Shown here: positions 58,976-63,073 of the stretch, piece by piece
Numbering within the stretch: position 1 is the first letter of the stretch
Layout: each line of letters starts with the position of its first letter
Sequence record: MZ234013.1
Reading direction: 5' to 3' (one strand)
From: Escherichia phage vB_EcoM-101112UKE3-1
DNA: 64,000 nucleotides
The notes under the pieces: model-generated
Told to the model about the DNA's origin: nothing
Databases searched by the model: none
What the model saw: the letters and a program-made list of their open reading frames with translations, nothing else
Made by a program: the position numbers and the translations under genes

Positions 58976-59152
58976 ATGACTACTTTAATTATTTGGTTCG
59001 ACGAAAATGAAGAAACATACTGCGTGAACATTGGCGAAAGCCCAATGCCAGAATTTGAATCTTCGGATAAAAACTCGGTTGTATCTTGGGCTGAAGGTTA
59101 TAAAGCAGCAAAAGGCGATGTTGAAATAGTTTACAAACTATCCGGAGTATAA
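58976..59152 (+). CDS. small hypothetical protein (58 aa; not in the supplied ORF track)
   Basis: ATG with GGAGAA RBS (aaaacggagaaataaATG); frame traced by hand. Confidence 0.4.
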   Translation: MTTLIIWFDENEETYCVNIGESPMPEFESSDKNSVVSWAEGYKAAKGDVEIVYKLSGV

Positions 59153-59195
59153 TACTCTCATGGATTTTAAATCTCAATTAACCTAAGGAAATACT

Positions 59196-59789
59196 ATGAA
59201 CACACTGAAGAAAATTGTTGAGTTTATTCGCACTAAACTTGGTTCTGCTATGGCTAAAAATCTATCTGTCGAAGAACAGTATACTGCTGCAGCAGCAAAA
59301 CTACTTGATAAAATTAAAGATCTAAAAACTGCTTCTGTTAAATCTATTAACGAAGAAAAACGTATTCGTGAACTTGTTATCGAAAAGAATCGACAGGCCG
59401 AATCAAAAGAGCGTGAAATTCGTAAACTTCTTTCCGAAGGCCAAGATGTAACAATGCATGCTAAACTCGGTTTACTATATCGTCGAACAGCTGAGCAGTT
59501 GACTACTAAGGCTGACGGTTATGCTGAAATGCGAATTGAAATCGCCAAGAAAGTAGTTGAGTTAGATGATGCTCGTCAAGAACTTGCGGTTAAATTGGAA
59601 TATATCCGTGAAACTCGTGCAGCAAATGCCCTTGGAATTAGTACTGCCGATGATGTAGTTGAAATTGCAGCACTGACTAAGGTTGATATTGAAGATACCC
59701 TTGCTCGAGTTGAAACCTTTAACGGTAATATTTCTGGGGTTGAAACTACCTCTGCCGATGTTCAGGAATACATTAATTCTCTGAAATAA
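59196..59789 (+). CDS. coiled-coil protein, possibly PspA/IM30-like
   Basis: 197 aa, heptad-rich; segment [10 protein letters not shown] resembles the DDTLARMKKE region of E. coli PspA as I recall it; unverified. Confidence 0.45.
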
Positions 59790-59793
59790 TGAT

Positions 59794-59811
59794 AAGGGGC
59801 TTCGGCCCCTT
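59794..59811 (+). other. GC hairpin aaggggcttcggcccctt (identical 18-mer to the hoc terminator stem at 17382)
   Basis: Perfect stem with TTCG loop; not followed by a T-run. Confidence 0.4.
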
Positions 59812-59830
59812 ATACTTGGAGTAAATAGGA

Positions 59831-60439
59831 ATGAAAATGCAAAGTGATTTCAATTCAATGTTTGAAGAGTTCCAAAGACAGGTTGATGTTCCAGACCAAT
59901 TACTAAATGCTCTTAAACGCATGGCAGAAGGACGTAATTACTATTGGGGGTCTTCATATGAAACTGATGAAAGCCTTTCCGGAAGATTTTCTAGAGGTAA
60001 AAAGTCTTTAATACGTCCTGGAATACTCATTAACAGTATTGAATCAATTCATTCATTGACGTGTGATTTTGATGTTGAATTTACTGATTTCATTTCTCCT
60101 GAATGGACGGTTTGTTATTTAAACGACGATTTTGATTATCTCGGTGTTTATAGTTTAAGTGACGCATGGTTTAAACGTAATTTACAAAAGTCAAATTTAT
60201 TTTATATTGATACTACTGTAAAATTTCAGGGCAAGAAATATTTCTTTACTCTTATAGTTGATTCTGAAACGAAGCATGAAAATAAACGTATTCTTAGTAA
60301 AAAGAATATCTTAACTATTGTTGATGATCTTTTTGATAAATTTGTAGAAAATCCCAATTTTGAAAGTGATTTATTACTAGAAAAATTTGTTAAGGAATGT
60401 AGAGAATATGTCAAAACCATCACTATACCTTCCAAGTAA
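59831..60439 (+). CDS. hypothetical protein (202 aa) with C-terminal FVKECR motif
   Basis: GGAGTAAATAGGAATG RBS region; C-terminus ...EKFVKECREYVKTITIPSK. Confidence 0.55.
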   Translation: MKMQSDFNSMFEEFQRQVDVPDQLLNALKRMAEGRNYYWGSSYETDESLSGRFSRGKKSLIRPGILINSIESIHSLTCDFDVEFTDFISPEWTVCYLNDDFDYLGVYSLSDAWFKRNLQKSNLFYIDTTVKFQGKKYFFTLIVDSETKHENKRILSKKNILTIVDDLFDKFVENPNFESDLLLEKFVKECREYVKTITIPSK

Positions 60440-60800
60440 ACCTGTGAAGTATGAACCAAAGCGTCAGATAATTTCTACTGATGTGTTAATAGGTCCTGTT
60501 ATACTCATATCATTTGTAATTCTATTGATTATTGGAGGTGTTTTAGATGTTATGACTGATATTGATTCTGGCGAAATACTTGTGTTAATGCTAATTCTTC
60601 CATTAATAGTTCCACTTTTATTAGTACCCGTAAATTGGGTAGGATACTGGTATCAAGGAAGACATTATCGTAAACGTGTACGTGATTGGAAAGCTCAGTG
60701 TAAAAAGATTAAAAAGGAACACCAGCTTAAGCTAGATATGTATGAATTTGATGAAATTATGAAATTTGTTAAGGAATCACGATGCAAAAGCCAAAACTAA
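60408..60800 (+). CDS. small membrane protein, family member A (130 aa from Met 8 of track ORF)
   Basis: Two hydrophobic helices, basic juxtamembrane segment, C-terminal ...FVKESRCK. Confidence 0.5.
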   Translation: MSKPSLYLPSKPVKYEPKRQIISTDVLIGPVILISFVILLIIGGVLDVMTDIDSGEILVLMLILPLIVPLLLVPVNWVGYWYQGRHYRKRVRDWKAQCKKIKKEHQLKLDMYEFDEIMKFVKESRCKSQN

Positions 60801-61144
60801 ATAAAGTCAAATATTCGTTTCCTGAGGCACTATTAATTCTTGCTGTATCAGTATTTACAGCTCTTGCGGGTAGTCTTATTGGATTGTTAATTGACTGTTT
60901 TATTTTAAATATCGACGGCACAGTAATTATAACAGAGGTTTGGAGTGAACTTCGTTTTACTATAGCGATTTCATTATTTTCATTCTTTGGTACCATGTTA
61001 TATTTTCATTATGATAATTTTAAAATAAATTGGCAAAGAAAAAAGGATTACAAAATACAATTAAAAGAATATAATAGCTACATGTCTTATATTGAAAATG
61101 AGTCAATGAAAGAGTTTGTGAGTGATTGTAGGAAAATTAAATGA
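60782..61144 (+). CDS. small membrane protein, family member B (120 aa)
   Basis: Hydrophobic helices; C-terminus ...KEFVSDCRKIK. Confidence 0.5.
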   Translation: MQKPKLNKVKYSFPEALLILAVSVFTALAGSLIGLLIDCFILNIDGTVIITEVWSELRFTIAISLFSFFGTMLYFHYDNFKINWQRKKDYKIQLKEYNSYMSYIENESMKEFVSDCRKIK

Positions 61145-61629
61145 TTTTAAAAACTCGCTGGTATGATTTAGATGATGGGGACGATGGCATTTCAGTTGAT
61201 AGAGTTGACTGGAATGGTTGTTCCGAAGATATGAAAAATTTGTTGATTAGGGAGTTTAGAATGGGATATCAAGCAGCTAAGCCATTTACTGTAACAGATG
61301 ATAAGTTCGTATGTATTCAAAACGGTCGCGCTAAGTTAACGAATGCTGATTGGTTCACAGATAAGAAGGTTCTTCTGTGGTATATCATTAGTCTTCCTAT
61401 ATCATCGTTCGTATTTTACTTTTTTATAAAAAATCCAATGGACAGAATAGGAGATTGGGTTCTTTTAACTATACTTGTTAATATTTTTACAGCAGCAGTA
61501 TTATCAGGAATATGGCGTATGTTCATTGAAATGCCATGGCGTTTACGCAGACAACAAAAGATTTTTGATGAAAAGAAATATACTCAAAATTTAAATAACT
61601 TTATCACTGAATGCAGGAAATTAAAATGA
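61141..61629 (+). CDS. small membrane protein, family member C (162 aa)
   Basis: Hydrophobic helices; C-terminus ...NNFITECRKLK. Confidence 0.5.
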   Translation: MILKTRWYDLDDGDDGISVDRVDWNGCSEDMKNLLIREFRMGYQAAKPFTVTDDKFVCIQNGRAKLTNADWFTDKKVLLWYIISLPISSFVFYFFIKNPMDRIGDWVLLTILVNIFTAAVLSGIWRMFIEMPWRLRRQQKIFDEKKYTQNLNNFITECRKLK

Positions 61630-62066
61630 AAACACTATCAGCTGGTATTATCTTTATGACAGAAGATAAAGATTTATTTATGGGTCGGGTTACTGGTTCT
61701 CGTAAGCCTGGAATGATGGCACATCGCTGGGATATTCCAAAGGGCCGCGTAGAAAGTTCTGATTTGAATGCACTGGAAGCTGCAAAAAGAGAATGCTTAG
61801 AAGAGACCGGTTTTAGCAATTATAATCCAGACCTTCTAGAAGACCTAGGTGTATTTAAATATTCTAGTAATAAAGACTTACAGTTATTTTATTATACGAT
61901 TCCAGTAGAGCATGAGATGTTTAGAAATTGCCATTGCGAGTCTTATTTTGAAAATAAAGATGGCGTTATGATTCCAGAGATGGATGCTTTTGCTCTTATT
62001 CCTCGTACTCAGTGGCAATATGTGATGGGTCCTTCACTTTACCGAATAATGAACAGCCTCTTTTAA
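61626..62066 (+). CDS. nudE: Nudix hydrolase
   Basis: Nudix box GRVESSDLNALEAAKRECLEETGF; ATGA overlap with previous ORF and AGGAAA RBS (track ORF starts 15 nt upstream at 61611). Confidence 0.75.
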   Translation: MKTLSAGIIFMTEDKDLFMGRVTGSRKPGMMAHRWDIPKGRVESSDLNALEAAKRECLEETGFSNYNPDLLEDLGVFKYSSNKDLQLFYYTIPVEHEMFRNCHCESYFENKDGVMIPEMDAFALIPRTQWQYVMGPSLYRIMNSLF

Positions 62067-62597
<531 letters not shown>

Positions 62598-62601
62598 AGT
62601 T

Positions 62602-62631
62602 GTTTACTTTCTCCTAGAATTGTGATAGTAT
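62602..62631 (+). promoter_or_regulatory. early-type promoter (GTTTAC, 18 bp spacer, TGtgATAGTAT) upstream of denV
   Basis: Same architecture as the other early-type promoters in the window. Confidence 0.5.
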
Positions 62632-62656
62632 ATTCACAGTTACTTGGAGGGATAAA

Positions 62657-63073
62657 ATGACTCGTATTAATTTGACTTTAGTATCTGAACTTGCTGATCA
62701 ACATTTAATCGCAGAATACCGTGAATTGCCGCGTGTTTTTGGTATAGTTCGTAAGCATGTGGCAAACGGTAAGCGCGTTAAAGATTTTAAAATATCTTCT
62801 AAATTTATTTTAGGTTCTGGTCATGTTACTTTCTTTTACGATAAGTTAGAATTTTTGCGAAAGCGTCAATCGGACATTATAACGGAATGCTTAAAACGCG
62901 GGTTCAGTATAAAAGATACTGAAGTTCCTGACATCAGCGATATTCCAGTAGAATGGAAAAATGATTATAATCCATGTAAATCAGCTATTAAGTTGAGTCA
63001 ACAACGACTCGATGAAAAAATTTTAATGAAGCCACACTGGTATAAGTATTACGGCAAAAATATTTACATTTAA
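62657..63073 (+). CDS. denV: endonuclease V (pyrimidine dimer DNA glycosylase)
   Basis: 138 aa; [26 protein letters not shown] as in T4 DenV; GGAGG RBS. Confidence 0.9.

Follow-up and report, generated by a model that had tools for sequence, protein, structure and literature searches.

Why should four adjacent genes of a T4-like phage, one encoding a soluble protein and three encoding membrane proteins, all end in nearly the same short peptide? The question is raised by a 64,000-nucleotide (nt) stretch of Escherichia phage vB_EcoM-101112UKE3-1 (MZ234013.1), called the window here, in which a reading made from the sequence alone (the sequence-only reading) had pointed out four consecutive open reading frames (ORFs) with related C-termini. 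The tails are present as described: e.5 ends in EKFVKECREY..., e.4 in MKFVKESRCKSQN (MKFVKESRCK), e.3 in KEFVSDCRKIK and e.2 in NNFITECRKLK, where trailing dots, here and below, mark a tail that runs on and all other tails, apart from FIHSCKK of RB43, end at the stop codon. The consensus of the four C-termini, hydrophobic-x-x-F-[IV]-x-[ED]-[C/S]-R followed by basic residues, is referred to as the box. The gene names come from the comparison with the e ORFs of T4 that had been proposed at the outset: the window belongs to a T4-like phage of the genus Tequatrovirus, and synteny with annotated genomes identifies the four ORFs as T4 e.5, e.4, e.3 and e.2 (about 94% DNA identity to the T4 genes), with e.6 on one side of the cluster and nudE, e (lysozyme) and denV on the other. 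Over bases 59100-62700 the identity to Yersinia phage PYPS2T is 99.8%, and 606 phage records matched. The ORF coordinates first given were also correct, save for one start codon: e.4 begins at ATG 60408 and not at TTG 60387, because its orthologs and PHROG 2604 start at MSKP.

First, the similarity of the tails goes beyond what chance would give. Pairwise BLASTP of single sequences is weak, with E values of 0.02 to 1.4 in a tiny database that are not significant alone. Hidden Markov models (HMMs) of the tails, in contrast, rank the e genes at the top. HMMs from the tails of one family put the other e genes first among the 876 six-frame segments of the window, and, in a search of the 3,119 six-frame segments of a near-identical complete genome, an HMM made only from tails of other genera gave its three best scores to e.2 (E=1.6e-5), e.5 (9e-5) and e.4 (0.017); e.3 was not within the best 14 matches of this HMM and was recovered by regular expression only. 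The expression F[VIL].[ED][CS]R has six matches genome-wide, four of which are the C-termini of e.5, e.4, e.3 and e.2. On these search results, chance can be excluded as the cause of the shared tails, and the significance of the C-terminal similarity, which the sequence-only reading had marked as the point to be checked, is upheld. When a strict box was defined as F-[IV]-x-x-C-R within the last 35 residues, it was found in e.5, e.3 and e.2, and e.4 carried only the relaxed form with S for C. The weakest member is e.4, with Ser (Ile in Mosigvirus) in place of Cys; the Cys after its Ser-Arg is there because it is forced by the overlapping ATG of e.3.

Second, the box is probably helical and amphipathic. 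AlphaFold 2 (AF2) locates it in the last helix of e.5 (residues 180-196) and of e.3, its positions -3, 0, +1 and +4 are hydrophobic in at least 90% of the tails, and the helical hydrophobic moment is greater than the strand moment in 10 of 12 tails. The Cys is replaced by V, I, M or S in e.4-like proteins, which suggests a packing residue and makes thiol chemistry (metal, disulfide or modification) unlikely.

Third, the box is no local peculiarity of T4, and it reaches well beyond the four genes in which it was first noticed. With e.6 as the anchor of 15 loci, 30 of the 198 ORFs downstream of it have the strict box, compared with none of 195 ORFs upstream and none of 191 on the opposite strand (386 controls; Fisher p=1.7e-15). 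The ORF directly after e.6 bears it in every one of the 15 loci, and the same holds for Aeromonas phages 65 and AhFM11; further box ORFs, encoding membrane proteins and small soluble proteins, follow in the e.6 loci. BLAST clustering sorts the box proteins into about 20 families from several genera and two subfamilies. Examples are the tails of Klebsiella phage Roth17 (FIKYCRERVQK, FIKEVRRK, WIRSCRK and FIAKCRAK), Edwardsiella phage PEi20 (FVEQCRT..., FIRNVRRK and FIQMCRR...), Enterobacter phage myPSH1140 (FINYCRG..., FIRMCRK... and FIDDCRRARK), Aeromonas phage 65 (FIKECRY... and FVNECRL...) and Aeromonas phage AhFM11 (FIDYCRR...), together with the relaxed form FIHSCKK in RB43. The public resources that we consulted handle e.2-e.5 as four unrelated families, named 'conserved hypothetical' or 'predicted membrane protein'; the shared box, the paralogy of the membrane proteins and the link of e.5 to e.5-like proteins of distant T4-like phages are unrecorded there.

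Fourth, the core of the box is selected as a protein, although the same DNA carries other signals. The genes overlap at every junction (e.5/e.4 by 32 nt, e.4/e.3 by 19 nt, and e.3/e.2 and e.2/nudE by 4 nt each, ATGA), and an SD-like (Shine-Dalgarno-like) AAGGAA, which reads K-E, or AGGAAA, which reads R-K, lies within the box 6-9 nt before the next ATG. Since the same stretch of about 24 nt holds the SD and the start codon of the next gene, the genes are linked in translation. The tails of e.5 and e.4 also share an exact 16-nt repeat. When the codons of 13 tails were compared, the Arg of the box was found to use five codons (AGA, AGG, CGT, CGA and CGC) from both codon families, the Cys used TGT in 6 tails and TGC in 5, and the hydrophobic residue at -3 used 8 codons with the middle T alone in common. 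Likewise, Tequatrovirus and a Dhakavirus-like phage have the same ECREY tail in e.5 although their C, R and Y codons differ synonymously, and in the Dhakavirus-like homolog the next start codon is 7 codons away. Because the Arg, Cys and -3 codons vary while the amino acids are kept, codon usage shows that the peptide itself is under selection. A RegA-like or other RNA operator at the junction was also considered, and the codon data speak against such a nucleotide-level constraint.

The proteins that bear the box are of two kinds. For e.4, e.3 and e.2, hydropathy and charge bear out the early description of two hydrophobic helices followed by a basic juxtamembrane stretch. Their N-terminal flanks and tails (the latter 38-57 amino acids (aa)) are net positive and their loops acidic, so that both ends are predicted to be cytoplasmic, and the proteins would be two-helix hairpins of the inner membrane. 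In e.4, the transmembrane (TM) helices lie at about residues 26-46 and 57-77, joined by an acidic loop and followed by a 57-aa basic tail, and the N-terminal LYLPSKP motif is kept in e.4-like proteins of other genera. The AF2 model of e.3 (predicted local distance difference test (pLDDT) 70, predicted template modelling score (pTM) 0.29) has helices at 13-42 and 46-119, with the second TM helix running unbroken to the C-terminus; e.3 orthologs are 39% identical in Mosigvirus and 31% in a Dhakavirus-like phage. The N-terminal 75-aa domain of e.2, predicted to be cytoplasmic, has a conserved W-x-[DN]-[IL]-D-D-G-[DN]-[DE]-G-I-S ... D-W-x-G-C, and e.2 orthologs in Dhakavirus-type phages are 30-33% identical. 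The N-termini of e.4 and e.3 are alike (M-x-K-P). Profile comparison by hhalign, with alignments from several genera, gave probabilities of 98.6% for e.4 and 92.5% for e.3 against e.4-like proteins of other genera, 77.5% for e.3 against e.4 over the full length, 75.5% for e.3 against the C-terminal half of e.2 (83 columns), 84.5% for e.3 against x101, a Mosigvirus protein of 101 aa, and 86.7% for e.3 against TM_L041; these links span 60-112 columns and cover hairpin and tail. The combination of a two-TM hairpin and a box is found in e.4, e.3, the C-terminal half of e.2, x101 and their relatives, and at the profile level e.4, e.3 and the C-terminal half of e.2 are probably diverged tandem paralogs.

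The soluble member, e.5, stands apart from this superfamily. No TM segment was found in it, and its hhalign alignment with the membrane families was confined in one comparison to 7-13 columns of the tail (probability 0.6-39%), so the local duplication of a membrane-protein family proposed by the sequence-only reading holds for e.4, e.3 and e.2 and fails for e.5, which has the box alone in common with them. Over its full length, e.5 matched soluble proteins of 178-244 aa that lie downstream of e.6 in other genera, with hhalign probabilities of 94.5% for the Dhakavirus-like family and 81% and 76% for the Karamvirus and Aeromonas ones. Its AF2 model (pLDDT 57.7, pTM 0.57) retrieved from BFVD, by Foldseek, uncharacterised proteins of 186-217 aa from T4-like phages of Klebsiella, Erwinia and Citrobacter (E 3e-5 to 6e-3). 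From these comparisons, e.5 belongs to a separate and older soluble family that follows e.6 in distant T4-like phages and shares only the box with the other three. The pair of e.6 and an e.5-like gene is conserved out to Aeromonas phages. The upstream gene itself changes slowly: e.6 is 74-98% identical across three genera, and between Tequatrovirus and Mosigvirus the identity is 88% for e.6, 45% for e.5 and 39% for e.3. By tblastn, e.6 was found in 1,099 phage records (Escherichia, Klebsiella, Aeromonas, Enterobacter and others), and it had no match in Pfam or, as a profile, in the PDB. A PspA/ESCRT-III-like identity was considered for e.6, which is helical, about 200 aa long and beside small membrane proteins, but neither Pfam nor the PDB gave sequence support for what is no more than an idea. 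Some GenBank records name e.6 a 'host specificity protein', without support.

Published T4 data show that e.2-e.5 are real, early-expressed accessory genes that are non-essential under laboratory conditions. Time-course omics recorded early RNA and detected protein for all of e.2-e.6 (PMC9697503, supplements 4 and 6), and CRISPRi-ART knock-down of e.2-e.8 was scored 'Not Fit', meaning no fitness defect, with prior essentiality listed as unknown (PMC11879866, supplements 8 and 15). The main texts of the HIDEN-SEQ and CRISPRi-ART studies make no mention of these genes, and literature searches by gene name and UniProt accession returned no functional study of them. The sequence-only reading recognised no known function, and the Pfam, NCBIfam, PHROG and CRISPRi results agree. 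Nothing above noise was found for e.2-e.5 in Pfam, NCBIfam or PADLOC (0 families at E<=0.1), whose curated models of known anti-phage defence and counter-defence families gave no match, and e.5 and e.2 had no match in PDB sequence searches. A search of 5.8 billion proteins returned just close relatives of e.3 and e.5, an exhaustive e.5 profile search of 1.84 billion representatives returned its own family and fragments only, and a tail profile run against a large protein database returned short fragments only and was unusable as a census. No homolog, fold or paper among these sources supplies a function for the box genes.

What could such a helix do at the end of otherwise different proteins? 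Our tentative answer, to which we give a little less than even confidence, is that these four accessory genes, the membrane-hairpin paralogs and the soluble e.5, use the box as a docking or assembly helix, while the DNA of the box also serves as the SD and start region of the next gene and as a recombination joint. The box would be a short amphipathic helix, predicted to be cytoplasmic, that ends all four proteins, and its docking face would be formed by positions -3, 0, +1 and +4. Through the box, bodies that have nothing else in common would attach to one shared partner or to one another, and the outcome would be a membrane-attached complex early in infection. As the co-conserved upstream protein, e.6 would be the obvious candidate partner. 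The docking function, and with it the identity of any partner, is what we infer from these data.

Several points weigh against this docking reading. The enrichment counts around e.6 include close relatives and are not phylogenetically independent. The AF2 models of e.5 and e.3 are of low to moderate confidence, the hhalign alignments of e.5 with the membrane proteins cover 7-25 columns only (probability 0.6-74%), and the probabilities among the membrane proteins (75-98%) come from small alignments and are inflated by shared hydrophobicity. A tail longer by two codons has its SD at R-K instead of K-E, and K-E is then relaxed to S-D or T-E, so part of the motif is clearly shaped by the SD. A search of viral contigs with the exact DNA pattern for FIKECRK plus stop returned only the expected T-even loci and one chance hit, an unrelated ribosome-binding site in a 222-kb contig that reads this peptide in a non-coding frame. 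Finally, genes of the cluster decay often, by frameshift, deletion or split ORF, so any function would be conditional.

Among the alternatives, the strongest is that the box is a relic of common ancestry, an intramolecular structural helix whose change was slowed by a second constraint on the DNA (the next ribosome-binding site and start), with each protein acting alone. We regard this as doubtful, though it deserves serious weight. The gene ends do overlap the next initiation region at every junction, the TTT, GAA and AAG codons vary little at the third position, the membrane members are paralogous anyway, and in the e.5 model the box helix comes after another helix and may merely pack on it. 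In the e.3 model, however, the box lies at the end of a free-standing helix of 74 residues that has no packing partner within the monomer. The box is also retained where the next start lies at least 7 codons away (protein A of locus L013) and where it is followed by as many as 30 residues (Aeromonas phage 65, PEi20 and myPSH1140), and it is common to families without other detectable similarity, including soluble proteins of 95-131 aa.

A different account, taken up from the functions that the sequence-only reading had suggested, would make the membrane members effectors of superinfection exclusion, lysis timing or anti-defence that act singly at the inner membrane, as Imm, Sp, RI or small anti-defence proteins do, in an array shaped by an arms race. 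The genes are small, early and non-essential, their products are located in the membrane and their copy number varies. They occupy the hyperplastic region that separates the tRNA genes from e, loss or decay is frequent among them, and e.5 and the membrane proteins evolve fast (39-53% identity between genera) compared with e.6 (88%). Against this stand the sequence comparisons, since family HMMs run on eleven proteins of the same genome, among them Imm, Imm.1, Sp, RI, RIII, holin T, Ac, gp52.1 and Rz/Rz1, gave bit scores of at most 4.6, and no PADLOC, Pfam or NCBIfam model matched. No phenotype is on record, and the shared box is left unexplained. We consider single-acting effectors quite unlikely as the full account; they are compatible with the docking reading, and the two are not exclusive.

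The weakest alternative takes the similarity as a nucleotide or RNA element (a translation-initiation or coupling cassette, perhaps a regulatory RNA site or recombination joint) with the peptide as a by-product, and although the SD-like signals, the ATGA overlaps, the 16-nt repeat, the chance ribosome-binding site, the e.2 deletion breakpoint within the box and an internal e.3 deletion (locus L011) that leaves the 3' end of e.3, with the box, before the next gene all lend it something, it is very improbable given the freedom of the Cys, Arg and -3 third positions with Arg passing between CGN and AGR, a distance from box to next ATG that ranges from 0 to more than 7 codons, the conservation of the box 6-8 codons upstream of any SD, and the conservative variation of the peptide in distant phages (FIKYCR, FVEQCR, FIDDCR and WIRSCR) where the nucleotides are not kept.

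The docking reading leaves a role for the DNA of the box in gene loss and gain. In laboratory T4, e.2 is frameshifted, and in phages of the T2, PST and UFV-AREG1 types it is precisely lost, with a chimeric e.3 tail that ends in the last codons of e.2. Comparison of the deletion junction with e.2-positive genomes gave two BLAST pieces about 485 nt apart with an overlap of 13 nt, and the breakpoint is therefore the repeated box. In addition, one Mosigvirus contig has an internal deletion of about 255 nt in e.3 with its 3' end retained, and e.5 is split into two ORFs in another Tequatrovirus contig. Being repeated, the box DNA also acts as a recombination joint that keeps the reading frame and allows members to be lost or gained.

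The coordinates of the cluster and its neighbours are collected in Table 1.

Table 1 Features of the e.6-nudE region (window coordinates)
Feature	Position	Strand	Remarks
e.6	59196..59789	+	197 aa, all-helical; PHROG 1203; upstream anchor of cluster
GC-rich hairpin ATAAGGGGCTTCGGCCCCTTAT	59792..59813	+	Between e.6 and e.5; from a terminator-like scan
e.5	59831..60439	+	202 aa, soluble; box on C-terminal helix; PHROG 2607
Box of e.5, L-E-K-F-V-K-E-C-R	60377..60403	+	e.4 start (60408) 4 nt further on
16-nt direct repeat AAATTTGTTAAGGAAT, copy 1	60383..60398	+	Codes K-F-V-K-E; includes SD-like AAGGAA
e.4	60408..60800	+	130 aa; PHROG 2604, alignment from residue 8 of the TTG ORF
Box of e.4, I-M-K-F-V-K-E-S-R	60756..60782	+	Ser at Cys position; AAGGAA 6 nt before e.3 ATG (60782)
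16-nt direct repeat, copy 2 (exact)	60762..60777	+	In e.4 tail
e.3	60782..61144	+	120 aa, two predicted TM helices; PHROG 2330
Box of e.3, M-K-E-F-V-S-D-C-R	61106..61132	+	Next AGG AAA = SD for e.2; ATGA start/stop overlap 61141-61144
e.2	61141..61629	+	162 aa; 75-aa N-terminal domain, two predicted TM helices, box; PHROG 2203
Box of e.2, L-N-N-F-I-T-E-C-R	61591..61617	+	Next AGG AAA = SD for nudE; ATGA 61626-61629; e.2-deletion breakpoint
nudE (Nudix hydrolase)	61626..62066	+	Pfam NUDIX E=4e-13; translationally linked to e.2

Full-length profile matches (PHROG 2607 1e-109 for e.5, 2604 2e-70 for e.4, 2330 3e-58 for e.3 and 2203 3e-78 for e.2), together with the place between e.6 and nudE, assign each ORF to its ortholog group. 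Each of the four has one separate PHROG, labelled solely 'unknown function' or 'membrane protein'. The UniProt entries are P32273 (e.2), P32274 (e.3), P39222 (e.4) and P39223 (e.5), and msp4 to msp7 are the older names of e.5, e.4, e.3 and e.2 in an early T4 GenBank entry. Precomputed Pfam annotation of homologs holds recent, separate accessions for e.5 (PF26876), e.4 (PF26873) and e.2 (PF26896), and none was seen for e.3. The hairpin between e.6 and e.5 has a UUCG loop, follows the e.6 stop directly, lies 18 nt ahead of the e.5 start and carries a stem_loop or terminator annotation in L13089 and MM02. The gap between this hairpin and e.5 has no room for a promoter-like site, and transcription of e.5-nudE therefore probably comes by read-through from promoters further upstream. 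For nudE, public annotations conflict: an in-frame ATG at 61611 (GA ATG C), within the box codons of e.2, would add MQEIK and give the 151-aa form annotated in T4, and ATG 61626, with a well-placed AGGAAA SD, gives the 146-aa form of other records. At the position of e.7, the window (58976-59152) has a 58-aa ORF (MTTLIIWFDENEET...), and T4 has an unrelated e.7 of 111 aa (compared with locus L004 468-803); this swap is a further gene replacement within the same variable region.

Two side observations come from related loci. A second tandem family, of soluble proteins of 65-106 aa with a conserved C-terminus G-x-W-[VIFL]-[SAT]-S-S-x-x-C that ends at the Cys, occurs as 3-5 consecutive copies between e.3-like and e.2-like genes in Mosigvirus, Dhakavirus-like, Kanagawavirus and Karamvirus phages (loci L002 4069-4863, L006 32-1070, L013 3681-4923, L021 5216-6290 and L022 4799-5325); it is absent from the window. 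In Klebsiella phage Roth17 (L020 1409-1858), an annotated anti-CBASS gene acb1 is found a few kb upstream of e.6, along with several tRNA genes, so the box cluster shares its accessory neighbourhood with known counter-defence genes.

About half of the genes of T4, the best-studied phage, are without function, e.2-e.8 among them. The box links four of these orphan genes to about twenty families in Klebsiella, Enterobacter, Edwardsiella and Aeromonas phages, beside e.6, and orphan ORFs thereby become one testable system. A box peptide of 10-15 residues (for example ENESMKEFVSDCRKIK) can be used as bait for a partner, with point mutants of F, C or R as clean controls, and the natural e.2 deletion, the T4 frameshift and the e.3 deletion are ready-made variants. 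The junction is also a worked example of one DNA stretch that acts as protein motif, translation signal and recombination joint, and a coding recombination joint is relevant to gene shuffling in the variable regions of large phages. For annotation, the product names in public records for homologs of e.2-e.6 are mutually inconsistent (sulfurtransferase, DNA primase, site-specific RNA endonuclease, putative phosphoserine phosphatase, glutaredoxin and host specificity protein); no profile library that we searched backs them, and they should not be propagated.

Compared with known systems, the box cluster has several partial counterparts. Like Imm, Sp, RI, RIII, T and Ac, the box membrane proteins are small, membrane-located, dispensable in the laboratory and encoded in variable regions, and Imm and Sp are expressed early. 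In contrast, there is no sequence similarity to these proteins, none of them bears the box, and their architecture differs from that predicted for e.4, e.3 and e.2, in which a helical tail of 38-57 aa in the cytoplasm follows a two-helix hairpin. The junctions also resemble translationally coupled overlapping genes in general, with overlaps and an SD inside the upstream coding sequence, but coupling by itself neither needs one and the same peptide at four successive junctions and in distant phages nor accounts for it. A third counterpart is the PeSL (promoter-early stem-loop) cassette, described in two reports on T4-like phages as a point of homologous exchange, insertion or deletion (PMC2839356, Arbiol et al. 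2010; PMC4122927, Comeau et al. 2014). Like the box joint, PeSLs are short conserved sequences at gene boundaries in hyperplastic regions, and the e.2 deletion of PST/T2-type phages likewise breaks in a repeated boundary sequence. PeSLs, however, are non-coding and consist of a terminator and an early promoter, whereas the box joint is coding and consists of the last 8-9 codons and the next SD and start; the four box junctions are coding overlaps without stem-loop or promoter, and the sole hairpin lies at e.6/e.5. Since the box joint is coding, an exchange there would be in frame and would preserve both the peptide and the translational coupling.

The closest analogy for a shared terminal peptide as a common address is the capsid-targeting sequence, which the T4 internal proteins (IPI, IPII, IPIII and relatives) reportedly carry. 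This sequence is N-terminal, directs proteins into the prohead and is removed by the prohead protease. As with the box, proteins that are otherwise unrelated and evolve fast have a short conserved terminal peptide in common; they are encoded by tandem genes in the same variable part of T4-like genomes, and an N-terminal MKTYQEFI... is seen on several ORFs beside e and denV in related loci. The box differs in that it is C-terminal, belongs to early membrane or cytoplasmic proteins and has no cleavage-site context, and the box proteins have no N-terminal peptide of the MKTYQEFIAE type (their N-termini are MKMQSDF in e.5, MSKPSLY in e.4, MQKPKLN in e.3 and MILKTRW in e.2). The analogy invites a bolder form of the docking reading, which we think unlikely as it stands: the box would be a portable C-terminal address tag that plugs interchangeable bodies (hairpins, e.5-type proteins and small soluble proteins) into a machine around the quasi-core protein e.6, and its DNA would be peptide, next ribosome-binding site and in-frame recombination joint at once. 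If this is true, the box would be the cytoplasmic or membrane counterpart of the N-terminal capsid-targeting sequence of the internal proteins, and modules could be swapped between phages with the tag and the translational coupling intact.

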